Shown: positions 2,978 to 59,828, numbered from the stretch's first letter. The stretch: DNA of 64,000 nucleotides from Candidatus Nanoarchaeia archaeon (GCA_049288015.1 JBAQGX010000003.1:55662-119661); one strand, 5' to 3'. The notes: generated by a model from the letters alone, not told the origin. Translations and numbers: made by a program.

Positions 2978-4357
2978 ATGAAATCTAGTATTAAAGAAAA
3001 TATTTCTTCCGGTGCAGGGGATATAAAAAAGTTATGGCATAGACTAAAGAATCGTGATTTTTCTGGAAATTCAGGACTTGCAATACAAAATAGTCTATAT
3101 CAGTTCCTTACAAATGTGTCCACAAAGTTAGGTGCACTAATATTTACTGTAATTTTAGCAAGAGTAATGATGCCTACTTTGTTTGGGGAGTACAGCCTTG
3201 CTCTTTCAGTGGTCTTAATTTTTGTTTCTTTTTCAGACTTAGGTATTGGAGATACGATGATCCGGTTTGTATCAAAAAAAATTGGAGAGAATAATCCCCA
3301 AAAGGCAAAAACTTACACTAAATATTTTATCAAAATAAAATTTGTATTTATATTTTCTATATCTCTACTTATTCTTATTTTAGCAAAAGTTATCTCAAAC
3401 ATTTATCCTAATGAACCTATATATTTGGCTCTTATGGCCGGATCTATCTATATTTTCTTTGTGGGATTTGTTGCATTTTTTATAAATGTTTTAAATGCGA
3501 ATAGTCATTTTAAACCAATATTTTATAGAGAAACAGTCTTTCAAGTTATAAGAATTATATTAATCCCCTTAATTACTATTTATCTTTTGAAAAATAATTT
3601 TAGTAGTGAACTGATTTTATTTTGGAATATTGCAATGTTAGCGGTAACATATTTTCTTTCAGGATTTACCTTTTTATCTTACAAAGAAGTAAATATATTT
3701 TCCATACTTAAACAGAAAGAGCAACTTTCTTCGCCTGAAAAGAAACAAGTAAATAAGTTCATTCTTCTTATGTCTGCTACTGTCTTTTCGGGTGTATTCT
3801 TTGGATATATTGATACCGTAATTCTTGGACTTTTTGTCCAGCCCCAATATATTGGATATTATAGAGCAGCATTTAATCTTATAGCTGCGATAGCCCCACT
3901 AATAACCCTCTACGTTGCAGTATATCCTATTTTTAACAAACTAAACAAAGAAGATCTTGAAATATTATTTAAGAGATCATTCAGGATAACTTTAATCTTA
4001 TCTGTACTAATTTCAATATTTCTATTTGCATTCGCAAATATTATAATTAGTCTTATTTATGGATCTGCATATTCAATGTCTGCCAATATACTCAGGATAT
4101 TTTCAATAGTATTAGTCACATTCCCAATAACTGGAATTTATTATGCTTATTTTGCTTCAATAGGAAAGCCAGAAATTAATACCAGGACGCTTGCTTGGTC
4201 TACAGTAATTAATATTGCCCTTAATATAATTTTGATTAGCTGGCTTGTAAGATATAGCCCTCTTTGGGCTGCATATGGAGCAGCAGCAGCAACGATTATA
4301 AGCAGATGGTTTTATACAATAGCATTAGCAGTTTATAAGAGAAAATTGAAGACCTGA
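2978..4357 (+). CDS. oligosaccharide/polysaccharide flippase (Wzx/MOP superfamily)
   Basis: 459 aa with about 12 predicted TM helices. It has the Wzx-like architecture and opens the glycan cluster. Confidence 0.65.
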   Translation: MKSSIKENISSGAGDIKKLWHRLKNRDFSGNSGLAIQNSLYQFLTNVSTKLGALIFTVILARVMMPTLFGEYSLALSVVLIFVSFSDLGIGDTMIRFVSKKIGENNPQKAKTYTKYFIKIKFVFIFSISLLILILAKVISNIYPNEPIYLALMAGSIYIFFVGFVAFFINVLNANSHFKPIFYRETVFQVIRIILIPLITIYLLKNNFSSELILFWNIAMLAVTYFLSGFTFLSYKEVNIFSILKQKEQLSSPEKKQVNKFILLMSATVFSGVFFGYIDTVILGLFVQPQYIGYYRAAFNLIAAIAPLITLYVAVYPIFNKLNKEDLEILFKRSFRITLILSVLISIFLFAFANIIISLIYGSAYSMSANILRIFSIVLVTFPITGIYYAYFASIGKPEINTRTLAWSTVINIALNIILISWLVRYSPLWAAYGAAAATIISRWFYTIALAVYKRKLKT

Positions 4358-4374
4358 AAAATTTTAATAATTTA

Positions 4375-5571
4375 TTAAACTTTTTTCAAACTTAGTAACT
4401 TATTATATTCTTTTATGCAAGTATCTGCGAGAAAACTATAATCATATTTTTCTGCCATTTTTTTGGAAACCTCCCCCATTTTTTTCATTTTTGATTTGCC
4501 GCTATTATATATTTTTAATAAAGCATCCCTTATTCCCAGAGGATTTTTGAATCCAACAACAAAACCATTTTTACCATTATCAACTAAATAGGGTTGAGCT
4601 GAACTAACAATAGGTAGCCCGCAGGCCATTGCCTCTTGTATTGTAATCATAAATTCTTCTGAGAGGGTTGCAGCAACAAAAAGATCTGATGAAAAGTAAT
4701 AATCATATAAGACTTTTTCTGGAACATTTTTCCTATGAAAAACATCTTTCTCCAATTCTAACCCTTCTTCTTTTACCCATTTATACATATCTTCTTCCAA
4801 GATCCCTCGACCAACCATCAAAAGTTTGGCATTTGGAATATCTTTCTTTAAAAGAGCAAATCCTTTTATGATATCATCGATTCCTTTATCTGGTGCTATC
4901 TGTCCGGTACTTAAAATCAATAAATCATCTTTCTTGATTCCGAGTTCCTTTCTTTTATCTTCATAACTCTTTTTCATATTTTGAATCTGATAAAAATTAA
5001 CTCCATTTGGTAAAAGAAAGATTTTATCTTCTGAAACTCCTAGCTTAGTTATTCTTGGAACTTGGAACTCTCCATCTGCAGCTATAGAATCTGATTTCTC
5101 CAAGACATACTGCCAAGGTTTTCTTAAAAACAACTTAATATATAATTTGCTTATGCCCTTTTGTCTCAAAGTTTCCTTCCCATACCATGCCTCCATACCC
5201 CATGTTTGATAGATTACTGGTTTCCTTTCTTTCTTATGTAAATACCACCAAGCAAACGATTCAGTACTATGTAATATATCAAAATTAGTTTTTTGGAGAT
5301 ATTTCATAAGATTATAACTAAATACAAATTTGTATGGTATGTTAGGAAATATCCTTCTAACCCCTGTATAAACAGGAGGCAGGAAAATATAACTAACACC
5401 ATTATACACGGTTTCTTTGAGTTTAGGATTGTCCTTAAGTTTGGTTGTAACAACAGTGACATTTATACCTTTTTTTACTAACTCTTCAGAAAGGTAGTGA
5501 ACATATTTTGATCCCCCATCAAATGCATTATGAAAATGGAAAGTTTCCATTCTTGGAAAGACTACCCTCAC
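4375..5571 (-). CDS. glycosyltransferase family 4 (GT-B, retaining)
   Basis: 398 aa. The C-terminal GT1/GT4 EX7E-type motif is present (ATLSEEFMITIQEAMACGLPIVSS). Confidence 0.8.
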   Translation of the reverse strand: MRVVFPRMETFHFHNAFDGGSKYVHYLSEELVKKGINVTVVTTKLKDNPKLKETVYNGVSYIFLPPVYTGVRRIFPNIPYKFVFSYNLMKYLQKTNFDILHSTESFAWWYLHKKERKPVIYQTWGMEAWYGKETLRQKGISKLYIKLFLRKPWQYVLEKSDSIAADGEFQVPRITKLGVSEDKIFLLPNGVNFYQIQNMKKSYEDKRKELGIKKDDLLILSTGQIAPDKGIDDIIKGFALLKKDIPNAKLLMVGRGILEEDMYKWVKEEGLELEKDVFHRKNVPEKVLYDYYFSSDLFVAATLSEEFMITIQEAMACGLPIVSSAQPYLVDNGKNGFVVGFKNPLGIRDALLKIYNSGKSKMKKMGEVSKKMAEKYDYSFLADTCIKEYNKLLSLKKV

Positions 5572-6104
5572 TTTACTACTTCTAATATAAAATGAACTTC
5601 ATTTGCAGGGAATAGATTTGCAAAAAAGGCCTCATAAATATTTGGAAATTTATTTGCAAAGAAATAAAGACCAAAAAAAGTATAGGTTCTGCAGAAAACA
5701 ATTTCTTTTTTAAAAAATTTAAATCTTATATCTCCATACTCATGAGATTGAATTTTGCCAATATGATTTTTTCCCTTAGGTTCGAATTCAACATAATCAA
5801 AACTGGTAAAGCTAAAAGGATGTAGATGAGTTAAATCCGAAGCAGCTGCACTTGAAGAATAATATGGAACCCTTATATCAATTCTTCCTCCTTTTTTCAC
5901 AACTCGATGCATTTCATTTATCAACGGGATTATATTCCAAACATGTTCTATAACATGATATGCTATTATCTCGTCTACTGAATCGTCCTTAAAGGGGAGC
6001 TTTTTTTCTAAATTAATAACCATATCTGGATTTACTGTGGACGAAATGTCACAATTCAAATATCCATCTAGCTTTACTTGACCACATCCCAAATTAAGCT
6101 TCAT
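5568..6104 (-). CDS. class I SAM-dependent methyltransferase
   Basis: 178 aa. Motif I LNLGCG is near the N-terminus and the size fits the Methyltransf_11 type. There is a 4-nt overlap with the neighbouring gene. Confidence 0.7.
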   Translation of the reverse strand: MKLNLGCGQVKLDGYLNCDISSTVNPDMVINLEKKLPFKDDSVDEIIAYHVIEHVWNIIPLINEMHRVVKKGGRIDIRVPYYSSSAAASDLTHLHPFSFTSFDYVEFEPKGKNHIGKIQSHEYGDIRFKFFKKEIVFCRTYTFFGLYFFANKFPNIYEAFFANLFPANEVHFILEVVK

Positions 6105-7180
6105 TTTACTAGTACTTCTTTTATAATTTTACAAATCTTCTCAATTTCTTCTTTTTTTAACTTAGAAGAAGAAGGTAAGTTGAGTCCTCTCTTTTCCAAT
6201 TCTTCTGCTACAGGAAAATGTTCTTTAGTAAAATAAGGGGGCATTTGATTCAAGGGTATAAAGAAAGGTCTCGTCTCTATCCCCTCTTTTTCCAATCTTT
6301 CAATAACCTCTTCTTTTTTATTAGTCAGGATTATATTCATCCAATACACATTTTTTCTGTCGTCTTTTTTCGGGATAAATCCCATACTTTTGATACCTTT
6401 TAACAATTGAACATATAAATCTGAATTTTCTTCCCTTATTTTTAAGAAAGACTTTATCTTTTCTAATTGTGCCAAACCTATTGCAGCTTCTATGTTAGTC
6501 ATTCTATAGTTGAATCCAATAACAGAATGCCAATATCTTCTTTCTTTACTCATTCCCTGATTCCTAAATAATTCCATTTTTTCTTTCAATTCTTCATTAT
6601 TTGTAACACACATTCCTCCCTCACCTGTCGTAATAACTTTATTACCAAAGAAACTAAAACATCCGATATCTCCAAAACTACCTACTTTTTTACCATTATA
6701 TTCAGCCCCATGAGCTTCTGCGCAATCTTCTATAACATAAAGATTATGCTTATTTGCAATTTCCATAATCTTTCCCATATCGCAAGGTATTCCATATAAA
6801 TGTACTGGAATTATTGCTTTTGTTTTTTTGGTGATTTTCTTTTCAATTTCATTAGGATCAATTGTCCAGGTATCTCTTTCAGAATCTACAAAAACAGGAG
6901 TAGCATTAACATATTTTACTGCATTTGCAGTTGCAATATAAGTAGACACTGGAACTATGACCTCGTCACCATCTTTTATACCTAATGCGAGTAAAGCAAG
7001 ATGTAATGCCGCAGTTCCATTACAGCAGCCAATTCCATATTTTACTTCGCAAAATTCCGCAAATTCTTTCTCAAATTTGTGAATATATTCTCCTTTGGAC
7101 GAGATCCAACTGCTTTTCACCGCGTCTATTACATATTCTAATTCTTCGTTTCCAAGCAGTGGTTCAGATACCGGAATCAT
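6101..7180 (-). CDS. DegT/DnrJ/EryC1/StrS-family PLP-dependent sugar aminotransferase
   Basis: 359 aa. The N-terminus MIPVSEPLLGNEELEYV..WIS.G is typical of nucleotide-sugar aminotransferases. Confidence 0.8.
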   Translation of the reverse strand: MIPVSEPLLGNEELEYVIDAVKSSWISSKGEYIHKFEKEFAEFCEVKYGIGCCNGTAALHLALLALGIKDGDEVIVPVSTYIATANAVKYVNATPVFVDSERDTWTIDPNEIEKKITKKTKAIIPVHLYGIPCDMGKIMEIANKHNLYVIEDCAEAHGAEYNGKKVGSFGDIGCFSFFGNKVITTGEGGMCVTNNEELKEKMELFRNQGMSKERRYWHSVIGFNYRMTNIEAAIGLAQLEKIKSFLKIREENSDLYVQLLKGIKSMGFIPKKDDRKNVYWMNIILTNKKEEVIERLEKEGIETRPFFIPLNQMPPYFTKEHFPVAEELEKRGLNLPSSSKLKKEEIEKICKIIKEVLVK

Positions 7181-7250: not shown

Positions 7251-7763
7251 TTAATTCTGATGTAAAAAATCTAAAATCTTTTTAACAGACTCTTCGACAT
7301 TTTCTTTTGTAGAATTAATCTCTACTTCCGGAGATTCTGGAGGTTCGTAAGGAACGTGTAATCCAATAAAGTTTTTAATTTCCCCAATTTCTGCTTTTGC
7401 ATATAATCCCTTAACATCTCTTTTCTTGCATTCCTCATATGAGCATTTTACATATATTTCAATAAAATTATCTCCTAAAACTCTCCGTGCCATTTCACGG
7501 GATTCTTTGAAAGGCGAGATTATTGGAACTAATATGTAATCCACTATACCCATAGAGTCTTTGCACAACTCAACTATTAATCTATTATTTTCTTTTATAT
7601 CTTCAGGGGTAAATCCTAAATGCTTGTGCAATCTTTCTCTAACATCATCACCATCAAAGATTTCATAGCTTTTGCCAAGATTATCAAATTTTTTTCTGAG
7701 AAGGTCTGTGATGGTACTTTTACCACTTCCAGATAATCCAGTAAACCATAGAACTTGAGTCAT
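7251..7763 (-). CDS. cysC: adenylylsulfate (APS) kinase
   Basis: 170 aa. It has the FTGLSGSGKST P-loop and APS-kinase length. It overlaps the upstream sat fusion by 4 nt. Confidence 0.85.
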   Translation of the reverse strand: MTQVLWFTGLSGSGKSTITDLLRKKFDNLGKSYEIFDGDDVRERLHKHLGFTPEDIKENNRLIVELCKDSMGIVDYILVPIISPFKESREMARRVLGDNFIEIYVKCSYEECKKRDVKGLYAKAEIGEIKNFIGLHVPYEPPESPEVEINSTKENVEESVKKILDFLHQN

Positions 7764-9970
7764 TCTACAAAAACTTTATCTCCCTTCTTTATACTTTCAA
7801 TGATTATATCAGATATTTCTGGTCTCATAAACCATTCTGGAGGTCTTATACCCTTATTTAGCATTTCTCTTGCCTGAGTTCCAGAAATATGCATCTTATT
7901 TTCTTCAGGATAGTCAATAAAATCGGGTTCATGTATGTACTTGTTGTCTAAATCAGAATAAAAAACAGTATCAAATTTTATTATTTCCATACCAAGTTCT
8001 TCTTTTGTAAATTTGTTAAAGATTTTGTGAGAAGCTTGCGGATCATAAAAATTTCCAACTCCTGTATGATCTCTTCCAACAATAAAGTGAGAACATCCGA
8101 AGTTCTTTCTTACTAGTGCTGTAAAGACTGCTTCTCTTGGTCCACCATATCTAGAATATGTTCCCAGAGTTCCAAAAACAACTTTTGATTTAGGATAAAT
8201 GTCTTTAATCATCTTCTCATAAGTTTTGATTATTATATCTGACTCAAAATCTCCAATTTTTTTCTTTCCTATAACCGGATGAACAAATAAACCATCACAA
8301 AGTCCTCTTTTTAGTCCTTCCAATTGTACAAATTCATGAGATCTATGTATAACATTTCTTGTATGAAATCCAACTACTTTGCTCCACCCTCTTTCCGAAA
8401 ATATTTTTCTTGTCTGTTTAGGTGTTAATTCATGACTGTTCTGGGAAATTCTTTTTTTTATTAAGCTAATTTTTCCACCCAAAAAAGTATTTCCTCCATC
8501 CAAAAACTTTTTTACTCCCGGATGATTTTCATCCAAAGTTCCGTAAACTTTTAAGGCGAGGTCACTTTTGTTCAAATTATATATCTCTTCTATATGAAGT
8601 ATGGCGTAGACTTCATTATCTTTAGATAACGATACATCTTCATTTTCTTCAAAGTTATTGGATATTTTTTCATCTATTTTTAATAAAATTGGTAAAGGCC
8701 AAATTGCATTGTTGGGTAATCGCATGTTATCTGCAACAGATTCTGCTTCATTCTTTTTCATAAAACCTTCAATAGGACTAAATGAACCCATTGCAATTTG
8801 TTCCACATCCATTAAAGTTTCTTCATCAATCTCAATTTTTTTATTTGGAATTATTCCATTATAATTTGGAAAGAATCTATTTACAAGTTTACCTCCATGA
8901 GGTTTTACCAATATTTCTGGAACTTTATCTGATTTTATATAGTTAGAATTAATTATCTTAGTAACTAAATCTTCTCCTTTTTGACTATTCAAAAAATTAA
9001 CTTGCTTCATCAGTACAGATAGCATATTAACTGTCTCAACAGGGTATTTTCCGACAGCAGTTTCTTTTGTTAATGCAATACCACTAACCCCATCTAAAAG
9101 TGTATTTATTATATCATTAACCTCTGCCTTATTTGGTTTTAATGCCATAGACATTTGTTCCAAGGTATTTGTTGCAACAAAAATTTCTTTTCCAAGATCT
9201 CTAACATTCTTTATTATTAACTTTTGAATAAAAGGAATCTTTTCAAGAGGAATTTGTGAACTTAAATCTCCTCGGTCAATAAGTATTCCATCAGAAACTT
9301 TTGCAATTTCAATAAAATTTTCTAGACCTTTTTTTGATTCTATCTTTGAGTATACTATTGCTTCTGGATATATCTTTCTAAATTTTGATACACTTTCAGG
9401 ATCTTCCATAAAAGATAGCGTGAAGTGGTTTATATTATGCTTTTTTGCAAGTTCAATAGCAGTGTGATCTTTTTTACTAAAAGGAGGTAAATTAAAGGTA
9501 GGACTATCCACTAAAACTGCTTTCTTTCCTCCTACTAGTCCGCCAATTATAACTTCGCACAATATATATCCTTCAACTATTTTTGAAGTATCAAAAACTC
9601 TAAGCAGAACCGAATTAAAATCTATAGAGATTAAATCCCCTACATCTAATTTTTTTATAATCCCGCTTGGATTTAAAAAAAGATTATTAGCATCGCATTT
9701 AATAGGATCTCCAAATAATTTAATCAAGTCCCCATCATTAAATCTAATCTCTTCGGTGTTGCCGGATCTTATTTGTGACCCTTCGGTATCTAGTATTATA
9801 GGTACTCCATAATCTATAATATCCCTTATTTTTTCATCAATTTCGTTTTCCTCAGTATGAGAGAGATTTATCCTAAAAAAATCAACTCCGCTATTTTTTA
9901 ACTTCCCAAGAGTTTCTGGATTATTAGATGAAGGACCTATAGTGCATATGATTTTTGTGCCATTTATCAT
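7760..9970 (-). CDS. sat: bifunctional fusion: N-terminal pyruvate-kinase-like barrel domain plus C-terminal sulfate adenylyltransferase (ATP sulfurylase)
   Basis: 736 aa. The N-terminal ~330 aa carry PK motifs (KIICTIGP, FRINLSHT, DTEGSQIR, KIESKKGLEN, DRGDLS, TKETAVGKYP). The C-terminal ~400 aa carry ATP-sulfurylase motifs (GFHTRNVIHRSHE, IVGRDHTGVG). Confidence 0.8.
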   Translation of the reverse strand: MINGTKIICTIGPSSNNPETLGKLKNSGVDFFRINLSHTEENEIDEKIRDIIDYGVPIILDTEGSQIRSGNTEEIRFNDGDLIKLFGDPIKCDANNLFLNPSGIIKKLDVGDLISIDFNSVLLRVFDTSKIVEGYILCEVIIGGLVGGKKAVLVDSPTFNLPPFSKKDHTAIELAKKHNINHFTLSFMEDPESVSKFRKIYPEAIVYSKIESKKGLENFIEIAKVSDGILIDRGDLSSQIPLEKIPFIQKLIIKNVRDLGKEIFVATNTLEQMSMALKPNKAEVNDIINTLLDGVSGIALTKETAVGKYPVETVNMLSVLMKQVNFLNSQKGEDLVTKIINSNYIKSDKVPEILVKPHGGKLVNRFFPNYNGIIPNKKIEIDEETLMDVEQIAMGSFSPIEGFMKKNEAESVADNMRLPNNAIWPLPILLKIDEKISNNFEENEDVSLSKDNEVYAILHIEEIYNLNKSDLALKVYGTLDENHPGVKKFLDGGNTFLGGKISLIKKRISQNSHELTPKQTRKIFSERGWSKVVGFHTRNVIHRSHEFVQLEGLKRGLCDGLFVHPVIGKKKIGDFESDIIIKTYEKMIKDIYPKSKVVFGTLGTYSRYGGPREAVFTALVRKNFGCSHFIVGRDHTGVGNFYDPQASHKIFNKFTKEELGMEIIKFDTVFYSDLDNKYIHEPDFIDYPEENKMHISGTQAREMLNKGIRPPEWFMRPEISDIIIESIKKGDKVFVE

Positions 9971-10049
9971 ATTCCTAAACTTGGTTATTTCCTTTTAAAG
10001 CTTATGAAATTTAGACATACTTTTAAGTAACTTTTAAAAATAAAATATC

Positions 10050-10835
10050 ATGGTAATTACAATGGATGATAATATACTTTGGATTCATTTGCATCCTCCT
10101 AGAACTGGAGGTAACACCATTGTTGAGACGATACTTAAACACTTTCCAAGAGAGGAAATATATATGACCTCTCTAGCAAGATATGGGATAGATACAGAGA
10201 AATTTGATAAGAATAAGGTCAGATTTATATTGGGACATGCTACTTATTACGGGATAGATAAATTGGTCCCTCAAAGAGTTCCAAGATATTTTGTCATTCT
10301 AAGGGATCCTGCAGAAAGGCTTGTTTCACACTATAATGCTAAGATGCAAGATGAAGAGAAGAAGATACCATTTGATAAGTGGTATAAAAATCAGATAAAA
10401 AACGAGATGGTTAATTTTCTAGACTTAAAATTTAGGGGAAGTGAATCTAGCAGAATGCGTGTTCCCAGGTTTATTTTGCCCTTAATAAAGAGGGTTAGCT
10501 ATAAAACAGTCTACTTTTTTCAAACAATTTTATTCAATTTGTTTAATCTCAATAAAAAGAACGATTTGAAAAAATTGGAGAATGCAAAAAAGTTGTTGGA
10601 TCTGTGTTGGTTTGTCGGAACTACTGAAGGGAGTAAAAAAGATTTTAAATTTATTTTTAATTCTATCGGGTTAAAAGATGTAAAATATAAAGATAATGGC
10701 GTAAGTAAAAAAGTTGTTAAAATAGATAATCAGCTTAGAGAAAGGATCTATAAAGATAATTCTTTAGATGTTGAATTATATAAATATGGATTAGAACTTA
10801 ATAAAAGACTAAGAGAAAAATATAAAATTAAATAA
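10050..10835 (+). CDS. PAPS-dependent sulfotransferase family protein
   Basis: 261 aa. The 5'-PSB-like motif is HLHPPRTGGNT. The 3'-PB-like motif is ILRDPAERLVSHY, of the RDPxxRxxS type. It is divergent from sat-cysC. Confidence 0.65.
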   Translation: MVITMDDNILWIHLHPPRTGGNTIVETILKHFPREEIYMTSLARYGIDTEKFDKNKVRFILGHATYYGIDKLVPQRVPRYFVILRDPAERLVSHYNAKMQDEEKKIPFDKWYKNQIKNEMVNFLDLKFRGSESSRMRVPRFILPLIKRVSYKTVYFFQTILFNLFNLNKKNDLKKLENAKKLLDLCWFVGTTEGSKKDFKFIFNSIGLKDVKYKDNGVSKKVVKIDNQLRERIYKDNSLDVELYKYGLELNKRLREKYKIK

Positions 10836-10857: not shown

Positions 10858-11910
10858 TTATTTATCTACAGAAGATATTCCTTTCTCTTTTAAAATTCTT
10901 AGATCATTTTGAACCATCATATTTACTAATTCTTTAAAGCTGGTTTTCGATTTCCATTTTAATTCTCTTTTAGCTTTAGAAGGATCCCCTAAAAGCAAAT
11001 CTACTTCTGCTGGTCTAAAAAATTTTTGATCTACTTTTACAACCACTCTTTCATGGTATTTTCCTACTTCATTAATTCCTTTTCCTTCCCAGATAATGGG
11101 CATGTCCACAATTTTGAATGCTTCTTCAACAAAATCTCTTACAGTATGATTTTCTCCCATAGATATAACATAATCTTCAGGCTTCTCTTGCTGAAGCATA
11201 AGCCACATTGCTTCCACGTAATCTCCTGCGAATCCCCAATCTCTTTTGGCGTCAAGATTACCAAGAGAAATAGGAAAATCTTGATATCCTAATTTTATCT
11301 TAGCTACGGAGTGCGAAATTTTTCTTGTGACAAATTGTTTACCTCTTATTGGTGATTCGTGATTAAACAAAATTCCACTACATGCAAATAACCCGTAACT
11401 TTCTCTATAATTTACTGTAATCCAATGACCGAATAATTTTGATACGCCATAAGGACTTCTTGGATAAAAAGGAGTCTTTTCTGTTTGCGGAACTTGCTGA
11501 ACTTTTCCAAACATTTCACTACTAGAGGCCTGATAAAATTTGATCTTGGGATTAATGAGCCTAATGGCTTCCAATATTCTTAGAACGCTCAATCCAGTAA
11601 TCTCTGCGGTAGATTCTGGTTGCGTCCAGGAAGAAGGAACAAAAGATTGTGAACCAAGATTATAAAACTCTGTAGGTTCAATTTCCTTCAATAACCTTAT
11701 TATAGAGCCTGTATCTGTTAAATCACCTTCAACTAAATGAATCTTATATTTTATCTCCCCTATTCTCTCGAATACATCTGTACTGGTACGTCTATGCATT
11801 CCAAATACTTCATATCCTTTTGAAAGTAAGAATTCAGCAAGATAGGTTCCGTCTTGTCCAGTAATGCCTGTAATTATAGCTTTTTTGTTTTGACCTTCAG
11901 ATTTATCCAT
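10858..11910 (-). CDS. gmd: GDP-mannose 4,6-dehydratase
   Basis: 350 aa. The N-terminus [28 protein letters not shown] matches the GMD hallmark, and the catalytic YxxxK is present. Confidence 0.9.
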
Positions 11911-12123
11911 TAGAAACCATATGAGAAATGATTTAAAAACTTTCTGAATTACAAACCTTTAATATAACTCTTCTAGAACTTAAATTCATCTGTAAAATTT
12001 ATCAACTAAGATTGTCATTGCAAGGTCTAAATTTTTTGAAACATACGGATGTAAATTTGATAGCTTATTTTCCTTTTTATTCAACATATTTGGGGTTACA
12101 ATAATTGGATTATTATCTAATTC

Positions 12124-12603
12124 TCAAAATTTCAATTCCCCTTCACCTTGTGCATAATAAATACCCATATAATCTCTAACTCCTTTCCCTCCTTTATTGA
12201 TATTCTTAGAAATTGTGGTCCATCCACAGTCCGCTCCTCCGAAATAAACAAAGTCCGAAAGATTTAGATTGGCTTCTCTTTTTGCATTAGCACTTAAAGC
12301 ATTTCTTAATCCAATAGTGCCTCTAGGTATACCTCCCCCTATTGGCCATAAAAGATCTTTTGCAGGATGACCCTTTCGGGTAATTAACAATATGCCTCTT
12401 TCATTTTTTTCATTTAAACATGCGATAAGACCATCAACACTTCCACGCACAAGGTAGGATCTTGCAGAATAATAATCTTTATCTGAGATTAATCCTGGAC
12501 TAAAACTGTTCTCGTCAAACGGAGACCCTTCATTTTCAATAAAAGTAATAGGCTCAAAGATTTTTGAGTATTTTCTTATTTCTGATGCAGTAATATTATC
12601 CAT
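12124..12603 (-). CDS. hypothetical protein (possible degenerate NUDIX-like fold)
   Basis: 159 aa. A ...LLWPIGGGIPRG... segment is only loosely Nudix-box-like. It sits next to gmd. Confidence 0.35.
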   Translation of the reverse strand: MDNITASEIRKYSKIFEPITFIENEGSPFDENSFSPGLISDKDYYSARSYLVRGSVDGLIACLNEKNERGILLITRKGHPAKDLLWPIGGGIPRGTIGLRNALSANAKREANLNLSDFVYFGGADCGWTTISKNINKGGKGVRDYMGIYYAQGEGELKF

Positions 12604-12680
12604 TCCTTACTCTATTTTAATTGCTTTAAAAGTTTTATTATGTGTTATTTAACAACCCTTATAAATTGATAATTTGATTA

Positions 12681-13781
12681 ATGTTTATGAAAATTGTAAT
12701 GATTTACCCAAGTTCGTTATCGGAAAAAGGAATTTCAAAATATTCTCAAGATTTAATTAGTAACATAAGAAAGCAAGATGTAGACATAGACGAAATTACA
12801 TTCACCCAAGGAAAGTCTTCTACTTTATTTAAACAAATACCTAAAATCTTAAAATACGACGTAATACACATTCAGCATGAGTATAATCTCCTAGGAGGTT
12901 ATGGAATACCTTACTTTGCATTATTTGGAATATTAGGTCTTTTTAAGAAAAAAAGAATTATAACAACAATGCATACAGTTCCATCTTTAAAAGGTGAATT
13001 TCAAAGTGGAAAAATCAAAACTTTTTTGAGAAAAGTTCTTTATAAATTACAAAATAGACTGATAAATGTTAATTCTAATAAAATAATAGTTCATTCGGAA
13101 GCGTTTAAAAGAATTTTATCAGAAGAGTATCATGTTTCAGAAGAAAAAATAAATGTTCTTACTCATGCAATAATTGAAGATATAAAAATCACAAATAAAA
13201 ATAAGGCGAAGAAAGACTTGAAATTAGAAGGTAATGTCTATTTACTTATTGGGACTATGATACGAGACCATGGGCATGATATAATCTTAAGGCAAGCTGA
13301 CAAAATTGGTAAAACTATTTTAGTTGCTACCAACCCCCTCGCGATTAACTACAGAAACGAGGAAAAAATAAAAGAATTTTTAAAACTAAATCAAGATATT
13401 GTTTCACAAAATCATTTTGAGAATTTTGTACGGTTTGATCTCGGACAAATTTCTTATGAAAAATGGTGGGAATATTTTTCCGCAGCAGATTTAATTTTGT
13501 TACCTTATAGAGGGGGAATAGGTAGTGGGATTTTTGCGGACGCAATGGCAGCACAAAAACCAGTAATTTCTAGTAATGTCCCTTATTTTAAAGAGATTGC
13601 AAAAGACTATGATTGTATAAAAATTGCAGATACAGATAATGATTTTGCTGAAATAATTAAAGAATCAATGAAACCAGAAAATTATAAAAAAATGATAAAA
13701 GGATGTGAAAAATTTTTGAAGGAAAATGGATTAACTCCTATTTCAAGAAAATATAAGGAAATTTATAAATCATTATTATGA
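12681..13781 (+). CDS. glycosyltransferase family 4
   Basis: 366 aa. The C-terminal GT4 motif region is present (LILLPYRGGIGSGIFADAMAAQKPVISSN). Confidence 0.75.
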   Translation: MFMKIVMIYPSSLSEKGISKYSQDLISNIRKQDVDIDEITFTQGKSSTLFKQIPKILKYDVIHIQHEYNLLGGYGIPYFALFGILGLFKKKRIITTMHTVPSLKGEFQSGKIKTFLRKVLYKLQNRLINVNSNKIIVHSEAFKRILSEEYHVSEEKINVLTHAIIEDIKITNKNKAKKDLKLEGNVYLLIGTMIRDHGHDIILRQADKIGKTILVATNPLAINYRNEEKIKEFLKLNQDIVSQNHFENFVRFDLGQISYEKWWEYFSAADLILLPYRGGIGSGIFADAMAAQKPVISSNVPYFKEIAKDYDCIKIADTDNDFAEIIKESMKPENYKKMIKGCEKFLKENGLTPISRKYKEIYKSLL

Positions 13782-14620
13782 AAATAGCAATAATAGGAGC
13801 AAATGGTTTTTTAGGTAAAAAGTTGAAAGAATACTTTTCTAAAAACAATGAGGTTATATCTGCAGGAATTAATGGAATAGGGGATATAATACCCTTAGAT
13901 GCCTCTGATAAGAAAGCTGTTGAAGATTTTATTTCTAAATACAATCCAGAAGTAGTCATAGATACTGTTGCCTTATCAAGTTCAGTGGCATGCGAAAAAG
14001 ATCCAAAGCTTTGTAAAAAACTAAATTATATTTCTGCAAAGAATATCGCAGATTCTTGTAAGAAAAATAATTCTGAAATGGTCTTTATTTCATCTTCGTA
14101 TGTTTTTGATGGTAATAAGGGAAGTTACAAAGAAGATGATCCAGTTTTACCTACAAATCAATATGCAATCACTAAGATTATGGCTGAAAAGGAAGTATCA
14201 AAATTATCTAGATTTTTGATCATAAGGGTTGAAATGATGTACGGACTAGATCAAAAAAAGATTAGATTTGGGACAGGGGGATTTAATAAAGAAATTATTG
14301 AAGTAGGATATCCAAAGCAAGTAAGAAACCCGCTTTTCGTTAATGATATTCCAAAGATAATAAATGAACTAATAAATAAAAGACAAAAGGGAATTTTCCA
14401 TTTAGCTGGCCCGGACAAGATTTCATTACTAGACTTTATAATGAAATTGTCTAAATTAGAAAAAGCAGAGAAAAAGGTTAAGATTGTAGATAGTTCTAAT
14501 TGGGCCATTAAATCTCCTAAAAATTCAACATTAGATACGTCTAAAATTAATTCCTTGGATATACACACTACTCCCCTAGATCTTTCATTAAGTGAAATAA
14601 AAAAAGAAATTATTAATTAG
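13778..14620 (+). CDS. RmlD-like NAD(P)H-dependent nucleotide-sugar 4-ketoreductase (SDR)
   Basis: 280 aa. It has the N-terminal glycine-rich loop MKIAIIGANGFLGK and a YAITK (YxxxK) catalytic motif. It overlaps the upstream GT gene. Confidence 0.65.
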   Translation: MKIAIIGANGFLGKKLKEYFSKNNEVISAGINGIGDIIPLDASDKKAVEDFISKYNPEVVIDTVALSSSVACEKDPKLCKKLNYISAKNIADSCKKNNSEMVFISSSYVFDGNKGSYKEDDPVLPTNQYAITKIMAEKEVSKLSRFLIIRVEMMYGLDQKKIRFGTGGFNKEIIEVGYPKQVRNPLFVNDIPKIINELINKRQKGIFHLAGPDKISLLDFIMKLSKLEKAEKKVKIVDSSNWAIKSPKNSTLDTSKINSLDIHTTPLDLSLSEIKKEIIN

Positions 14621-15881
14621 AGTTAATATCTATTACTCTCAATCTAGGGAAAGGTAATATAAATTTCCCTCCATTATTCAAGTATTCTTTCTCATCATCG
14701 CCAATGCCTTTGAATATATGCCAAATTAAAACTAATTGATAGTCAGGGTTGTATTTTTTTATATTATCTGGGGAAGTGATGGGAATTAATGAACCTACAG
14801 TTAATTTTCCCTCTTTATCTGGGTTTCTGTCAAAGATACAATCAATTAAGTCTGGGCCAAGATTAAAATATTGGAGAGTTGTATTTCCCCTAGTAGACGC
14901 TCCTAATCCACATATTATTTTACCGGACTTTTTCTCATTTTTTAAAAAAGTCAATAATTCTTCTTTTATAGAATCAATCCTAGATGCGAAATCTAAGTAA
15001 GGCTTTTTAGTGTTAAGTCCTATTATCTTTTCTTTTTCATTTATCTCCTTCAAGTAATCTTTGTCCGATTCTGAAGAATTAATTGTCTCATTGTCTTTAA
15101 ATTTAATATAAGTTCTTATGCTTCCTCCATTTACTTCATTTTGTTCTATCTTAAAAATTTCTAGGTTATATTTATCTAAGAGGTTTCTAAGAGATAAAAG
15201 TGAATAGTACTCTCTGTGCTCATGGCAGATATTATCTACTGCATTATTTTCAAGCATAGCAATTAAATAATTTTGCTGAATTATAAAAATCCCATTTTTA
15301 TCTAAAACTGAAACAATATCTTTTAAAAATTTATTTGGATTATCAAGATCATAAAACATTGAAATAGCAGTTATTATTTTTGCTTTGCTATTTTCAGATT
15401 TTGAAAAATCATCTGCATTAAAAAAATTATTTATTATTTTATATCCTTTGCTGCTTGCCTCTTTAGCTACATTTTTTGAAGGTTCAAATCCAATAATATT
15501 GATTCCTTTGCTTTTATCATAAGAATCTAACAGTGTTCCATCATTGCACCCTATATCTATAACAGTATCTCCCTTCCTTAATTGGACTATCTTCTGAGCT
15601 TTCTCAACTATATCCTTTAGATCCTCTCTAATCATTCTGTTTATTCCAGATTTATACCAATACTGGTCTCCCCACATAGAACTAGCAGGAGCATTGTGTT
15701 TTAATTGTAATAACTTGCAATTTTCACATAAAACTAATTCTAATGGAACGAGGGGGATATCTCTTTGTTCTTCCTCAGAGCTGACAAAATTTGTAACATA
15801 TTGATTACCTAAGGATATTATGGGAGTTAACTCTACAGAACCACACGATCTACATTCCTTTATTTCTAAAGTCTTTTCCAT
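14613..15881 (-). CDS. sugar C-methyltransferase-like protein (Zn-ribbon + SAM MTase + C-MT C-terminal domain)
   Basis: 422 aa. The N-terminus has CxxC...CxxC (CRSCGS...CENCKL), followed by the SAM motif VIDIGCNDG. The architecture resembles TylCIII/NovU-type sugar 3-C-methyltransferases. Confidence 0.55.
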   Translation of the reverse strand: MEKTLEIKECRSCGSVELTPIISLGNQYVTNFVSSEEEQRDIPLVPLELVLCENCKLLQLKHNAPASSMWGDQYWYKSGINRMIREDLKDIVEKAQKIVQLRKGDTVIDIGCNDGTLLDSYDKSKGINIIGFEPSKNVAKEASSKGYKIINNFFNADDFSKSENSKAKIITAISMFYDLDNPNKFLKDIVSVLDKNGIFIIQQNYLIAMLENNAVDNICHEHREYYSLLSLRNLLDKYNLEIFKIEQNEVNGGSIRTYIKFKDNETINSSESDKDYLKEINEKEKIIGLNTKKPYLDFASRIDSIKEELLTFLKNEKKSGKIICGLGASTRGNTTLQYFNLGPDLIDCIFDRNPDKEGKLTVGSLIPITSPDNIKKYNPDYQLVLIWHIFKGIGDDEKEYLNNGGKFILPFPRLRVIDINSN

Positions 15882-16020
15882 CTATTATTTGCTCGTAAAT
15901 TTAACTGCAAGCCAATTTTATTGGGAATTTTCCCTTTTTAATGATTTCTGTATGTCTATACTTTGAAGAATTGTTCTTCATAATCTTTTTAAATAATGGA
16001 CGCAACCTATCAACCAGAAG

Positions 16021-17133
16021 ATGAAACATCTAAAAGTATTTATCAATCCAGGGATCCACCCTCAGTTTAGAGAGATAATTGATTTTCCACCAGAAGATGT
16101 AGAATATGTTTATGATCCTATAGTTGGAGATCACAATAATGAATTAACTAGGAGAAAGAGAGAAGTTATTTCTTTTGTACAGAGATATCTCCAAGTTCCT
16201 AGGATGGCAAAAATAGAGAATGAGGATAAATTTGATCTTATCCATTCCACGAGAGGAATTCTAATAAGAAATAAGAAACCATGGGTTATTGACTTAGAAT
16301 CTGGTGCTGCCTTTTCCGGTTTGGAATGGACAACATTAAAGAAACCCAGAATGAGAAGACTGATAAGAAAATATCTTTCCTCTCCTTATTGTAAAAAAAT
16401 AATGCCCCAAAGCGAAGCGGCTAGGAAAACTCTGCTTGAAAATGTTGACTGTTTTGGTTTTGAAGATAAAATAGAGACAGTTTATTTGGCTTATCATACA
16501 ACTAAACTAGAAAGAAAAAAATCAGATAAAGTTAGATTATCTTTTATCGGAAGAGGATTCTTCGAAAAAGGAGGTAATGATGTGCAAGAGGCGTTTAAGA
16601 TATTAGATAAGAAATATCCTGGTAAGCTTCAATTAAAAGTCAAATGTAATGTTCCAGAAGACCACAAATTGGATATGAACAATGTGATTTATTTGCCAAA
16701 AATAGATGATCCTTTAGAATTTTATAAAGAAATATTTGGAGATTGCGATATTTATGTACAACCAACCACTGTGGATAGCTTTGGTGTTACTATATTAGAA
16801 GCAATGTCAACAGGACTACCCATAGTTTGTACAGATGATTTTACTCTGCCAGAATTAGTAGAAGACGGCCATAATGGGTTTTTGGTGAAAAGTCCTGTTC
16901 ATTGGTATCCTTATGGTATAAAAGGGGAATGGAAAGAATATACAAAAAAAGCAGAAGAGGAACATCCAGAGACTGTTCAAGAATTAGTTGAAAAAATTTC
17001 CCTGCTTATAGAAAATCCAAAATTAAGAGAAAAAATGGGAAAAAATAGTTTTGATATCGTTGAATCTGGGAAATTTTCGATAAAAGAAAGGAACAAAAAA
17101 TTAAGAAAAATTTATGATGAAGCTCTTAGGTAA
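16021..17133 (+). CDS. glycosyltransferase family 4
   Basis: 370 aa. The GT4 C-terminal motif is present (FGVTILEAMSTGLPIVCTDDFTLPELVEDGHNGFLV). Confidence 0.75.
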   Translation: MKHLKVFINPGIHPQFREIIDFPPEDVEYVYDPIVGDHNNELTRRKREVISFVQRYLQVPRMAKIENEDKFDLIHSTRGILIRNKKPWVIDLESGAAFSGLEWTTLKKPRMRRLIRKYLSSPYCKKIMPQSEAARKTLLENVDCFGFEDKIETVYLAYHTTKLERKKSDKVRLSFIGRGFFEKGGNDVQEAFKILDKKYPGKLQLKVKCNVPEDHKLDMNNVIYLPKIDDPLEFYKEIFGDCDIYVQPTTVDSFGVTILEAMSTGLPIVCTDDFTLPELVEDGHNGFLVKSPVHWYPYGIKGEWKEYTKKAEEEHPETVQELVEKISLLIENPKLREKMGKNSFDIVESGKFSIKERNKKLRKIYDEALR

Positions 17134-18050
17134 TTAATAAATTTTTTAATCCCTTCTTCGGGGCTCATTGGTTCTATTCCCAATATTTCCCTCATTAGCT
17201 TCGTATCTGCTTCAAGATTTTCAACATAATTGGCTTCCTTTGGAATAAAAATTGGTTCTAAATTAGTATTGAAATCATCTTTTATAGTTTTTAACAATTG
17301 TCTGAATGATTTAGATTTTCCAGTTCCAACATTGATTATACCTGTATACTCAACCTCTGCAGATCTTACAATCATTTTAACTACATCTTCTATATAAACA
17401 AAATCACGGGTTTGATTTCCATCCCCCCATATTTCTGGGGCCTTTCCATTCATATAATCTTTTATGAATAAGTAAAGTACACTTCCAAAATCTTTCTTTC
17501 TTTCTTCACCAGGCCCATATCCAGCAAAAATTCTTAGACCAACCGATTTCACAAAATCAGAATAAGAACTTGCAAGGCCTTCACAAGCCATTTTGCCTGC
17601 AGCATATAAATTTCGTGGTTTAATATAAATATTTTCTCTGTGAGGCATCTCATTTCCTGCATAATTGCTTCCGGAAGTAGGATATACCAATTTCTTTGTT
17701 TTGTTTTGTTTTGCAAATTCCAGTGCTTCATACAAACCAAAGATAGTTTCGCTTAAGCATTTTTCTGGAGTTTTTTTGAATAGTGTTATGGATGATGGTG
17801 CAGCAAAATGGAAAATATAGTCTATATCTTTTGGAACTTTAGCCCATGATTCATGTTTGGATACATCTCCCTCGATTATATTTATTTTTTTTAAAAAATC
17901 CAACTTGTCTTTAAATTTCTCATAATCTGTGTAAGAAAAATTATCAATTGAATAGACAATAGCTCCTCTCGAAAGTAACTCTTTTGTAATGTTTGATCCT
18001 ATAAATCCACTTGCTCCATTAACCAAAACTTTTTTGTCTTTCCAATCCAT
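17112..18050 (-). CDS. NAD-dependent nucleotide-sugar epimerase/dehydratase (extended SDR)
   Basis: 312 aa. It has the NGASGFIGSN Rossmann loop and a YAAGK catalytic motif. Its 3' end overlaps the convergent GT gene. Confidence 0.75.
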   Translation of the reverse strand: MDWKDKKVLVNGASGFIGSNITKELLSRGAIVYSIDNFSYTDYEKFKDKLDFLKKINIIEGDVSKHESWAKVPKDIDYIFHFAAPSSITLFKKTPEKCLSETIFGLYEALEFAKQNKTKKLVYPTSGSNYAGNEMPHRENIYIKPRNLYAAGKMACEGLASSYSDFVKSVGLRIFAGYGPGEERKKDFGSVLYLFIKDYMNGKAPEIWGDGNQTRDFVYIEDVVKMIVRSAEVEYTGIINVGTGKSKSFRQLLKTIKDDFNTNLEPIFIPKEANYVENLEADTKLMREILGIEPMSPEEGIKKFINYLRASS

Positions 18051-18099
18051 GGAATTTGGAAAGACTAGTTATTTTTAAGTCTTATGTATCTTAAACACA

Positions 18100-19206: not shown

Positions 19207-19213
19207 ATTATTT

Positions 19214-58897: not shown

Positions 58898-58898
58898 T

Positions 58899-59825: not shown

Positions 59826-59828
59826 TTT

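Follow-up and report, generated by a model that had tools for sequence, protein, structure and literature searches.

A putative sulfation module with a pyruvate kinase-ATP sulfurylase fusion in a surface-glycan island of a DPANN archaeon

In rhizobia, NodP/NodQ together with NodH sulfate the Nod factor, and similar bacterial clusters pair PAPS genes with a sulfotransferase. The locus described here lies in a 64-kb stretch of DNA from a Candidatus Nanoarchaeia archaeon (hereafter the window) and shares with NodPQ/NodH a dedicated sulfate-activating copy beside a predicted PAPS-dependent carbohydrate sulfotransferase, within a glycoconjugate cluster and apart from assimilation. NodPQ is of the GTPase-coupled CysD/CysN type, whereas the ATP sulfurylase (ATPS) of the window is of the homo-oligomeric Sat type, is fused to a pyruvate kinase (PK) domain and belongs to a DPANN host. 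Metazoan PAPSS1/2, in which APS kinase (APSK) precedes ATPS, and Sat-CysC of Aquifex (PDB 2gks) also couple the two activities physically or translationally for PAPS delivery to sulfotransferases. In contrast to these bifunctional PAPS synthases, the window encodes its APS kinase in an ORF of its own, which overlaps that of the ATPS by 4 nt. To our knowledge, none of the known forms of bifunctional PAPS synthase carries a PK domain.

ATPS with a product-removing partner occurs naturally as a fusion with pyrophosphatase in diatoms and oomycetes (PMC2275785, PMC4220642). The APSK-ATPS-pyrophosphatase isoform of diatoms, haptophytes and Phytophthora was assigned to sulfation and not to assimilation, and it shares with the window protein an auxiliary enzyme thought to pull the unfavourable activation (PMC2275785, PMC4220642). 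There, however, PPi is removed, whereas ADP removal and ATP formation from PEP are proposed here, and the lineages and domain order differ. The same two surveys of ATPS fusions list none with PK.

Among archaea, the ATPS/APSK pair of M. thermolithotrophicus (PMC10322725) is likewise a PAPS-forming pair, and its ATPS is the closest solved one to that of the window (39-40% identity, TMt 0.92), but that system, which includes a DHH-type PAP phosphatase, feeds PAPS reductase and sulfite reductase in assimilation and has no PK domain. Sulfated glycans are well known in haloarchaea, and Agl30 and Agl31 of Halobacterium salinarum have been shown experimentally to be N-glycan sulfotransferases (PMC11980604). 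They act on a surface-protein glycan, and they share with the predicted window sulfotransferase that they are archaeal sugar sulfation enzymes within a glycosylation cluster, one of them soluble and cytoplasmic. By the structural comparison in that paper, however, at least the soluble Agl31 (VNG1057C) resembles sulfatases with an alkaline-phosphatase fold, and PAPS is mentioned nowhere in it (PMC11980604), whereas the window enzyme has a predicted P-loop PAPS-binding fold rather than a sulfatase-like one and is encoded beside PAPS genes, which sets it apart from Agl30/31 as described there. Novelty lies here in the lineage and in the type of enzyme, since archaeal glycan sulfation as such is known. 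We propose, with a probability of roughly two in three, that the locus is a dedicated sulfation module with a PEP-recharged PAPS supply in a surface-glycan island of this DPANN (Nanoarchaeia/Pacearchaeota-like) archaeon. The DPANN assignment follows from the NCBI label 'Candidatus Nanoarchaeia archaeon' of proteins that match those of the window at 100% identity.

The sulfation locus and its surroundings

The core of the locus consists of the following features, with the domains of the fusion protein given from its N-terminus.

7251..7763, minus strand: APS kinase (CysC-type), 170 aa (PF01583, E 5e-48; TIGR00455, 185.6 against a cutoff of 138.7)
7760..9970, minus strand: PK barrel, PUA-like and ATP sulfurylase fusion, 736 aa (Pfam PK, PUA_2, ATP-sulfurylase)
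9029..9961, minus strand: PK A+B (barrel and cap) domain, residues 4-314 (PF00224, E 8e-63)
8456..8908, minus strand: PUA-like N-terminal domain of ATP sulfurylase, residues 355-505 (PF14306, E 1.2e-42)
7796..8431, minus strand: ATP sulfurylase catalytic domain, residues 514-725 (PF01747, E 7.6e-74)
9971..10049, no strand: AT-rich intergenic region of 79 bp between the divergent fusion and sulfotransferase genes (read directly from the sequence)
10050..10835, plus strand: predicted PAPS-dependent, cytoplasmic sulfotransferase, Sulfotransfer_2, 261 aa (PF03567)

The ORFs lie exactly where a sequence-only reading had placed them, and the 4-nt overlap that it had noted reads ATGA at 7760-7763, where the ATG start of the APS kinase gene meets the TGA stop of the upstream fusion gene; the earlier identification of APS kinase was upheld by the profile search. 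The 79-bp region presumably holds both promoters of the divergent genes. Gene callers place the start of the sulfotransferase at Met5 (10062), which gives 257 aa.

The module is flanked by genes that were annotated with Pfam on the window and with precomputed Pfam results of an identical contig, mapped back to window coordinates.

2978..7180, no strand: left glycan island, whole (Pfam)
2978-4357, plus strand: Wzx-like flippase (Pfam)
4375-5571, minus strand: GT4 glycosyltransferase (Pfam)
5568-6104, minus strand: methyltransferase (Pfam)
6101-7180, minus strand: DegT aminotransferase (Pfam)
10858..20212, no strand: right glycan island, whole (Pfam)
10858-11910, minus strand: GDP-mannose 4,6-dehydratase (Pfam)
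12124-12603, minus strand: unknown 159-aa ORF
12681-13781, plus strand: GT4 glycosyltransferase (Pfam)
13778-14620, plus strand: epimerase/reductase (Pfam)
14613-15881, minus strand: C-methyltransferase (Pfam)
16021-17133, plus strand: GT1 glycosyltransferase (Pfam)
17112-18050, minus strand: epimerase (Pfam)
18100-19242, minus strand: UDP-GlcNAc 2-epimerase (Pfam)
19214-20212, minus strand: Glycos_transf_4, GlcNAc-1-P-transferase-like (Pfam)

This annotation, with three GT1/GT4 glycosyltransferases, bears out the earlier placement of the module in a run of flippase, glycosyltransferase and nucleotide-sugar genes. The minus-strand GT4, methyltransferase and DegT genes of the left island overlap one another by 4 nt and are contiguous and co-directional with the PAPS genes.

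The divergent protein had been taken for a sulfotransferase, and PF03567 (Sulfotransfer_2) matched its residues 80-246 with 41.9 bits, above the gathering threshold of 22 (E 1.7e-10); NCBI names an identical protein 'sulfotransferase family 2 domain-containing protein'. Both PAPS motifs that the sequence-only reading had pointed out are present and conserved in 36 homologs. The 5'-PSB P-loop (PKxGxT-like) is PRTGGNT at residues 17-23, after the first beta strand, with R at position 18 in 30 homologs and K in the other 6, and the 3'-PB motif is RDPAERLVS at residues 85-93, with S93 found in 35/36. G21, H63, R85 and P87 are invariant, and at least 90% of the homologs have G20 and T23. H63 aligns with the HGH/His142 region of heparan sulfate (HS) 2-O-sulfotransferase (2-O-ST) and is the predicted catalytic His. 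The AF2 model has a pLDDT of 89.6, and in a Foldseek search of this model against the PDB the top 30 or more matches were all sulfotransferases, the best being 4ndz (E 3e-7, TMq 0.58). The solved structures nearest to the predicted fold are the carbohydrate enzymes HS 2-O-ST and then HS 6-O-ST (PDB 4ndz, 3f5f, 5t03, 5t05), which share the Sulfotransfer_2 fold, the 'GH..Y' catalytic His and the RDPxERLVSxY 3'-phosphate motif and are the best matches in both structure and sequence, at 16-18% identity and a TM of about 0.5-0.6. These animal enzymes are Golgi membrane-anchored and luminal, whereas the window enzyme is small and soluble, with neither a signal peptide nor a TM segment at its N-terminus, and has R instead of K in the 5'-PSB loop. 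By its motifs and its model, the protein is a P-loop, PAPS-type sulfotransferase with a predicted cytoplasmic location.

The pyruvate kinase-ATP sulfurylase fusion

The gene at 7760..9970 had been read as an ATP sulfurylase. This holds for its PUA_2 and ATP-sulfurylase domains, but the whole is a 736-aa fusion whose N-terminal PK barrel had been missed. The AF2 model of the fusion has a pLDDT of 92.7 and a pTM of 0.88, and over 120 homologs (48-83% identity) have the same architecture; in the PDB, the PK and ATPS halves are not covered together by any chain. The ATPS part scores above the cutoffs of NF003166 (419.8 against 387) and TIGR00339 (355.1 against 322.95), and in the PDB it is matched best by 8a8d (M. 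thermolithotrophicus ATPS, E 1e-90) and by 1v47, with a Foldseek TMt of 0.92 to 8a8g and 1v47. Its catalytic domain contains motifs of the HxxH and GRDHxG types (FHTRNVIHRSHE / RNVIHRSHE and GRDHTGVG), and the usual Q of the ATPS 'QTRN' is replaced by an invariant H536. The APS kinase, a separate ORF, carries the Walker A/P-loop GLSGSGKST. NF004040 (bifunctional Sat/APSK) gave 272.7 against a cutoff of 669.

The active site of the PK domain is intact. Across 61 sequences, which include homologs with as little as 48% identity, ten positions never vary, namely the counterparts of R72, N74, S76, D112, T113, R119, K269, E271, D295 and E363 (rabbit numbering), and at least 90% of the sequences have the counterparts of K206 and T327; the set covers catalytic, Mg2+, K+-site and nucleotide-contacting residues. 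The domain superposes on PKM2 with an rmsd of about 2.5 Å over about 340 columns. The C-terminal regulatory/tetramerisation domain of PK (PF02887) is absent from the window protein and from all 120 homologs, and the full-length PK equivalog TIGR01064 scored 247.5, below its cutoff of 306.4; the domain is therefore a PK-like catalytic module and not a canonical PK. Because the cap-domain motif KGVNLPG has diverged to KKAVLVDS and the position of rabbit Glu117, which sets K+ dependence, is an invariant Gln, its substrate or cation use could differ from that of classical PK.

These departures from canonical PK would also suit a domain with no catalytic role in PAPS synthesis, such as a fused glycolytic PK, a scaffold or oligomerisation module or a kinase for another substrate. 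The JGI label of the protein is plain 'pyruvate kinase', and fungal ATPS with its non-catalytic APS-kinase-like domain (PMC2275785) offers a precedent for fused domains without activity. Strict conservation of all catalytic PK residues speaks against a pure scaffold, however, and a glycolytic PK is at odds with the neighbours of the fusion, which are sulfotransferase and glycan genes and not glycolysis genes, and with its occurrence in bacteria of large genome size (contigs of 8.8 Mb, 4 Mb and 3.8 Mb) that are expected to own a glycolytic PK. Nor does PK appear to stand in for APS kinase, since it persists in relatives in which APS kinase is fused as well. We consider a PK domain without a catalytic part in PAPS synthesis unlikely.

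In the proposed sulfation module, the ATPS part of the 736-aa protein would convert sulfate and ATP to APS, and the translationally coupled APS kinase would convert APS and ATP to PAPS and ADP. The fused, unregulated PK domain would then turn ADP and PEP into ATP on the spot, thereby removing the ADP that holds APS kinase in a dead-end ADP-APS complex, and the ATP so made would feed both the ATPS and the APS kinase steps, for a net reaction of sulfate + ATP + PEP -> PAPS + PPi + pyruvate. ADP and APS combine on APS kinase into a dead-end complex, which is why PAPS accumulated in vitro only with ATP regeneration by PK/PEP (PMC9885120). We infer the catalytic role of PK and the direction of flux, and in the PK-ATPS fusions at large PK activity and its coupling are likewise putative.

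Neighbours of the fusion across genomes

DPANN, CPR and numerous phyla of bacteria contain carriers of the PK-ATPS fusion. In about one sixth of relatives (11/69 full-length ORFs, and about 20/120 homologs in a separate set) APS kinase is fused too, which places both PAPS-making activities on a single PK-ATPS-APSK polypeptide of 903-940 aa and, by Rosetta-stone reasoning, argues for joint action of the three activities. Sulfotransferase genes are associated with the fusion across genomes and adjoin it in most of them. Of 42 well-flanked fusion loci, with at least 5 kb on each side, 28 have a sulfotransferase within 1 kb, 31 have one within 5 kb and 33 within 10 kb; precomputed Pfam contexts show one near the fusion in 6/6 independent contigs, and all eight short sulfotransferase calls that were rechecked by Pfam, from eight different phyla, were confirmed. 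An adjacent sulfotransferase with no APS kinase within 10 kb was seen in 15 of the 42 (for example L004 and L089), so the three-enzyme logic is not always visible locally. CysQ-type PAP phosphatases adjoin the fusion in 4-5 loci.

Alternatively, PAPS could be converted to sulfite and then sulfide for cysteine, as in E. coli or M. thermolithotrophicus, with the sulfotransferase being incidental. In favour of this, the closest match of the ATPS part is the assimilatory enzyme of M. thermolithotrophicus (8a8d), 'sat' of DPANN/CPR is counted among the sulfur-cycle genes in metagenome papers (PMC8091004, PMC12153355), and a CysH-like homolog adjoins the fusion at one locus (L043). That locus, however, is 1 of 81, whereas a sulfotransferase lies within 10 kb of the fusion in 51/81, and the sulfurylase relatives are almost never beside cysH or cysI. 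In the same set, assimilation genes accompany a plain ATPS at a single locus (L085, with CysH and CysI beside it), and there the PK domain is missing. In the window, the genes stand in a glycan operon context, and a six-frame search of the 64 kb with E. coli CysH, I, J, D, N, K, M, Q, Z, A, W and U gave no match at E<=1; the lack of assimilatory sulfite and cysteine genes that had been noted nearby extends across the window, with cysH, sir and cysK absent from all 64 kb, and neither a reductase nor a PAP phosphatase is present in it. An assimilatory use is very improbable. Window content, sulfotransferase type and comparative genomics all support the earlier proposal that the purpose of the PAPS is sulfation rather than sulfur assimilation.

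No description of the PK-ATPS fusion was found in the literature searched, and this widespread arrangement is apparently undescribed. We hold at even odds the broader claim that the PK-PUA-ATPS fusion, whether or not APS kinase is fused too, forms a widespread class of PAPS synthase that has gone unrecognised, is driven and recharged by PEP, and marks dedicated sulfation across DPANN, CPR and over a dozen further phyla. In that case, many annotations of 'sat' and 'pyruvate kinase' in MAGs with small genomes would denote surface-glycan sulfation instead of sulfur cycling or glycolysis, and the envelopes of ultrasmall episymbionts would bear sulfated glycans.

Possible acceptors

The divergent soluble sulfotransferase would use PAPS to sulfate a hydroxyl of a sugar, and we infer that the acceptor is probably a lipid- or nucleotide-linked glycan precursor on the cytoplasmic side, modified prior to flipping and attachment to surface proteins. 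The same PAPS module might instead serve the head group of a membrane lipid or glycolipid, a polysaccharide resembling a capsule, a nucleotide sugar or some small metabolite. CDP-alcohol phosphatidyltransferase genes adjoin the fusion and sulfotransferase in three loci (L004, L011 and L090), the wide variation of sulfotransferase families beside the fusion (Sulfotransfer_1, _2 and _3) implies many acceptors, and an oligosaccharyltransferase (AglB) gene was not seen in the window. The window sulfotransferase, however, is flanked by flippase, glycosyltransferase and nucleotide-sugar genes and not by lipid-synthesis genes, its nearest structures are polysaccharide sulfotransferases, and PMT-family protein glycosyltransferases are found in related islands, so that such an acceptor seems doubtful. 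For sulfation of a glycan bound for surface proteins, the 54-64 kb region of the window encodes plausible targets, as had been suggested: a secreted S/T-rich protein of 941 aa that carries 26 N-X-S/T sequons, and four small proteins whose N-termini resemble those of pilins.

Sulfate activation and transfer genes in a glycan island

Direct reading of the open reading frames placed the three genes for sulfate activation and transfer where the sequence-only reading had put them:

7251-7763, minus strand, APS kinase (PF01583, TIGR00455)
7760-9970, minus strand, fusion protein of 736 aa (PF00224, PF14306 and PF01747)
10050-10835, plus strand, sulfotransferase of 261 aa (257 aa from Met5; Pfam Sulfotransfer_2)

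The 170-aa APS kinase was recognized by PF01583 (E 5e-48) and by TIGR00455 (185.6 bits, cutoff 138.7), and its 4-nt overlap with the sulfurylase gene was found again as ATGA, made up of the APS kinase ATG and the upstream stop. The overlapping gene had been read as an ATP sulfurylase (ATPS). The domains of a Sat-type sulfurylase are indeed present (NF003166, 419.8 against a cutoff of 387), and the solved structure nearest to this part is M. thermolithotrophicus 8a8d (E 1e-90), but a pyruvate kinase (PK) barrel-plus-cap at the N-terminus had been overlooked. The protein is thus composed of three parts:

Residues 4-314, PK barrel-plus-cap domain (PF00224, E 8e-63)
Residues 355-505, PUA-like domain (PF14306, E 1e-42)
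Residues 514-725, Sat-type ATP sulfurylase catalytic domain (PF01747, E 8e-74)

Pfam profiles and alignment showed that the PK C-terminal regulatory domain is absent from the window fusion. In the sulfurylase motif, an invariant His536 stands where QTRN usually has Gln.

The divergent gene, separated from the fusion gene by 79 AT-rich bases, encodes a sulfotransferase as claimed, passing the Pfam Sulfotransfer_2 threshold with 41.9 against 22 bits. Both PAPS motifs quoted for it are conserved in an alignment of 36 homologs with 43-80% identity, nearly all of which are metagenomic and the few named of which are Pacearchaeota, Nanoarchaeia or 'archaeon'. In the 5'-phosphosulfate loop PRTGGNT, 30 homologs have Arg and 6 have Lys at position 18, G21 never varies, and G20 and T23 occur in 90% or more; His63 does not vary either, nor do R85 and P87 of the 3'-phosphate motif RDPAERLVS, with S93 found in 35/36. 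The sole significant sequence match in the PDB was heparan sulfate 2-O-sulfotransferase, and the alignment spans exactly 'GH..Y ... RDPxERLVSxY', including the catalytic histidine of that enzyme. The AlphaFold2 model (pLDDT 89.6) had heparan sulfate 2-O- and 6-O-sulfotransferases as its top structural matches (E 3e-7 to 3e-6, TM at most 0.58), followed by sulfotransferases only. Neither a signal peptide nor a membrane segment is present in the window sulfotransferase, which is therefore expected to be cytoplasmic, where PAPS is located. Judged from these sequences, the three enzymes leading from sulfate through APS and PAPS to a sulfo-ester are the products of neighboring genes, and all of them appear catalytically intact.

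The surface-glycan island reported around the three genes is contiguous and spans about 3-20 kb in both precomputed and fresh Pfam annotation. It contains a Wzx-like flippase, three GT1/GT4 glycosyltransferases, a GlcNAc-1-P-transferase-like Glycos_transf_4 protein, a GDP-mannose 4,6-dehydratase, a DegT aminotransferase, two further epimerase/reductases, a UDP-GlcNAc 2-epimerase, one O- or N-methyltransferase and one sugar C-methyltransferase. On the minus strand, the fusion, APS kinase, DegT, methyltransferase and GT4 genes follow each other head to tail, with 4-nt overlaps among the last three. A TATA-like element lies in the 70-bp gap before DegT, so there may be separate promoters. The absence of assimilatory genes nearby also held: a six-frame search of the 64-kb window with E. 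coli CysH, CysI, CysJ, CysD, CysN, CysK, CysM, CysQ, CysZ, CysA, CysW and CysU gave zero matches even at E<=1. Genes outside the island are archaeal housekeeping genes, including SecDF, SecY, a ribosomal protein operon, L1/L10/L11, Spt5 and FtsZ. One island gene and the features at 54-64 kb were recorded separately:

12124-12603, minus strand, 159-aa open reading frame with no Pfam or NCBIfam match, its position kept on the identical contigs L001-L003
54277-57102, minus strand, secreted Ser/Thr-rich 941-aa protein
54277-57102, 57885-60260 and 60293-63772, minus strand, higher-GC stretch (GC 0.35-0.41 vs 0.31 elsewhere)

The 941-aa protein has a signal peptide; Ser and Thr make up 26% of it, and it contains 26 N-X-S/T sequons where 18.5 would be expected. 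The same stretch encodes 815-aa and 343-aa proteins, and Pfam gave no match for these three large proteins; four small proteins have pilin-like N-termini of the 'KRG|F/Q' type (class-III signal peptides). The higher-GC stretch likely encodes surface structures, and the 941-aa protein and the four small ones are reasonable glycoprotein candidates whose sole tie to the sulfotransferase is the shared genome.

The PK-ATPS fusion family

A search of 5.8 billion proteins returned 798 matches to the fusion, the best 120 of which align over their full length with 48-83% identity and all consist of PK, PUA_2 and ATP-sulfurylase domains; about 20 of these 120 also carry a C-terminal APS kinase. Scanning one genome per GTDB species revealed at least 596 relatives, and the PK part was present in 77 of the best 80. 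An assembly or frameshift artefact was ruled out because over 120 independent clusters, and 69 single open reading frames, share the same 720-770-aa architecture. Archaeal hosts are DPANN (Woese-, Pace- and Nanoarchaeia), and bacterial hosts comprise CPR lineages (Parcubacteria, Saccharibacteria and others) as well as Chloroflexota, Gemmatimonadota, Elusimicrobia, Omnitrophota, Bdellovibrionota, Planctomycetes, Verrucomicrobia, Actinobacteria and Alphaproteobacteria. The fusion also occurs in the cultured Mesorhizobium amorphae (loci L064 and L076, with no sulfotransferase found within 10 kb) and Salsipaludibacter albus (L067); cultured, genetically accessible carriers would permit direct experiments.

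Two alignments, one of 17 sequences and one of 61, were used to judge the conservation of PK residues, with rabbit-muscle PK numbering. The equivalents of R72, N74, S76, D112, T113, R119, K269, E271, D295 and E363 are invariant, and 90% or more of the 61 sequences keep those of K206 and T327. Compared with canonical PK, the family has lost the C-domain and its cap motif has diverged from KGVNLPG to KKAVLVDS. Gln66, with Glu63 nearby, lies at the position of rabbit Glu117, the determinant of K+ dependence in classical PK enzymes, and this Gln is invariant throughout the family. The AF2 model of the whole fusion reached a pLDDT of 92.7 and a pTM of 0.88; sequence and structure searches of the PDB found no solved chain covering both halves, and NCBIfam has no curated model for the fusion.

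Genomic company of the fusion

To characterize the genes accompanying the fusion, open reading frames were called in 84 non-redundant loci, and neighbors within 6 kb were clustered without prior labels before recurrent clusters were identified by Pfam. The commonest neighbors were APS kinase, several sulfotransferase families and glycan genes, the latter including nucleotidyltransferases, epimerases, GT1/GT2, flippase, DegT, NeuB and CMP-sugar synthetases. Since the iterated sulfotransferase HMMs drifted into TPR proteins in loci L044 and L047, where both calls checked gave only TPR families in Pfam and were left out, we kept calls of 170-450 aa, excluded those below 170 aa or above 450 aa, and quote the conservative counts. 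Forty-two loci have an intact fusion flanked on each side by 5 kb or more of sequence, and among them a sulfotransferase lay at these distances from the fusion:

Within 1 kb, 28/42 loci
Within 5 kb, 31/42 loci
Within 10 kb, 33/42 loci

The two genes are frequently co-stranded with a gap below 100 bp. Re-checking eight short calls from eight phyla in Pfam confirmed 8/8, and independent precomputed Pfam annotation placed a sulfotransferase near the fusion in 6/6 contexts (window/L001, L004, L005, L006, L089 and L090). In 21/42 loci APS kinase was part of the fusion, overlapped it or lay within 1 kb; counting up to 10 kb gave 23/42. Four loci have a CysQ-type PAP phosphatase next to the fusion (E 1e-28 to 1e-33), and there was one further weak match. 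CysH adjoins a single fusion locus (L043), whereas L085, one of the three loci in which ATPS stands alone without PK, has CysH and CysI alongside, a small internal contrast rather than a statistical comparison. Across genomes, the PK module, covalently attached to ATPS and itself catalytically intact by its residues, tracks sulfotransferases, not reductases.

In 15 well-flanked loci, including two DPANN genomes (147-kb and 857-kb contigs), a sulfotransferase lies beside the fusion and APS kinase is absent within 10 kb. Loci with this arrangement are:

L004, L014, L006, L082, L024, L028, L032, L045
L034, L036, L083, L061, L066, L063, L067, L089

Either the kinase is encoded elsewhere in these genomes or the system works differently. 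Among the best 120 of 7990 APS kinase homologs, many shared the length of their longest contig with an entry on the fusion list, and none did so for the 867-kb and 857-kb DPANN contigs.

No classical sulfotransferase lies near the fusion in the DPANN loci L020 and L078. In L020 a Sulfatase-family protein (PF00884, E 2e-44) abuts the fusion, and in L078 two Phosphodiest/alkaline-phosphatase-superfamily proteins do so, with an AAA_33 P-loop kinase in the usual place of APS kinase:

L020, 8745-9986, plus strand
L078, 8541-9989, plus strand; 13701-15236, minus strand; 12235-12834, plus strand

By analogy, these neighbors are reminiscent of the sulfatase-like Agl30/31 of Halobacterium. In seven bacterial loci (cluster 17; L083 12416-13507, L076 12808-14247 and five others), a Na_H_Exchanger-family membrane protein directly follows the fusion, and in L006 it is followed by a TauE-family permease; both are possible sulfate or anion carriers.

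Novelty and proposed working of the module

Dedicated PAPS genes beside a carbohydrate sulfotransferase are known from rhizobial nodPQ/nodH, and metazoan PAPS synthases and sulfated exopolysaccharide clusters are further examples of this type of arrangement. Haloarchaea are a classical source of sulfated glycans; the window sulfotransferase is of the classical PAPS type, whereas haloarchaeal Agl30/31 are sulfatase-like enzymes of another type. The NCBI pipeline already names all three window proteins correctly. Among papers containing both 'sulfotransferase' and 'DPANN', none concerned a DPANN sulfotransferase as judged by title and abstract. To that extent, PAPS genes with a sulfotransferase are a familiar arrangement in a lineage for which no report was found. 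The PK-ATPS fusion goes further: two surveys of ATPS fusions list only APS kinase, pyrophosphatase and APS reductase as partners (PMC2275785, PMC4220642), and full-text literature on PK together with ATP sulfurylase or sulfate adenylyltransferase yielded PK as a coupling enzyme only and no description of a fusion.

We propose that the fused PK domain would use PEP to rephosphorylate the ADP that APS kinase gives off. Such recycling is attractive because the ATP sulfurylase equilibrium is very unfavorable and depends on product removal (PMC4220642), because APS kinase is trapped as a dead-end enzyme-ADP-APS complex (PMC9885120), and because product-removing ATPS-pyrophosphatase fusions exist in nature, with isoforms assigned to sulfation (PMC2275785, PMC4220642). 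A published cascade made hardly any PAPS without added PK/PEP regeneration (PMC9885120). The triple PK-ATPS-APSK proteins fit this logic. The PK domain could instead substitute for APS kinase by using PEP, an idea we rejected as the main one because the PK part is retained without change where APS kinase itself belongs to the fusion. Along with ADP recycling, we infer from the Halobacterium analogy and the island content that the acceptor would be a glycan precursor at the cytoplasmic face, sulfated before flipping; in Halobacterium, sulfation takes place on the dolichol-phosphate-bound glycan (PMC11980604). No genes in the 64-kb window account for PEP supply, PPi removal, PAP removal or sulfate uptake.

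This proposal gives a testable function to a domain fusion of hundreds of genomes, in which the PEP-powered ATP recycling that biochemists supply artificially for in vitro PAPS would be built into its synthesis, and a compact PK-ATPS(-APSK) enzyme could serve biocatalytic PAPS production. It also predicts that DPANN surface glycans are sulfated by a classical PAPS-type sulfotransferase, and negatively charged envelopes could affect the attachment of episymbionts to hosts. NCBI names the fusion 'sulfate adenylyltransferase' and JGI names many members 'pyruvate kinase'; because of these names, automated metabolic reconstruction may overstate how complete glycolysis is, or how much sulfur cycling takes place, in DPANN/CPR MAGs. 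Metagenomic papers have taken DPANN/CPR 'sat' as a sulfur-cycle marker (PMC8091004, PMC12153355), and the 'sat' and 'pyruvate kinase' calls that published surveys score as sulfur-cycle or glycolysis genes need re-reading in such MAGs.

In a related DPANN genome (L090, 2433-9155), the sulfotransferase, fusion and APS kinase trio adjoins a phosphonate pathway consisting of a PEP mutase-cytidylyltransferase fusion, a TPP decarboxylase and an Fe-alcohol dehydrogenase. Such a neighborhood suggests glycans or lipids with both phosphonate and sulfate groups, and the pathway shows PEP to be a metabolite in such organisms.
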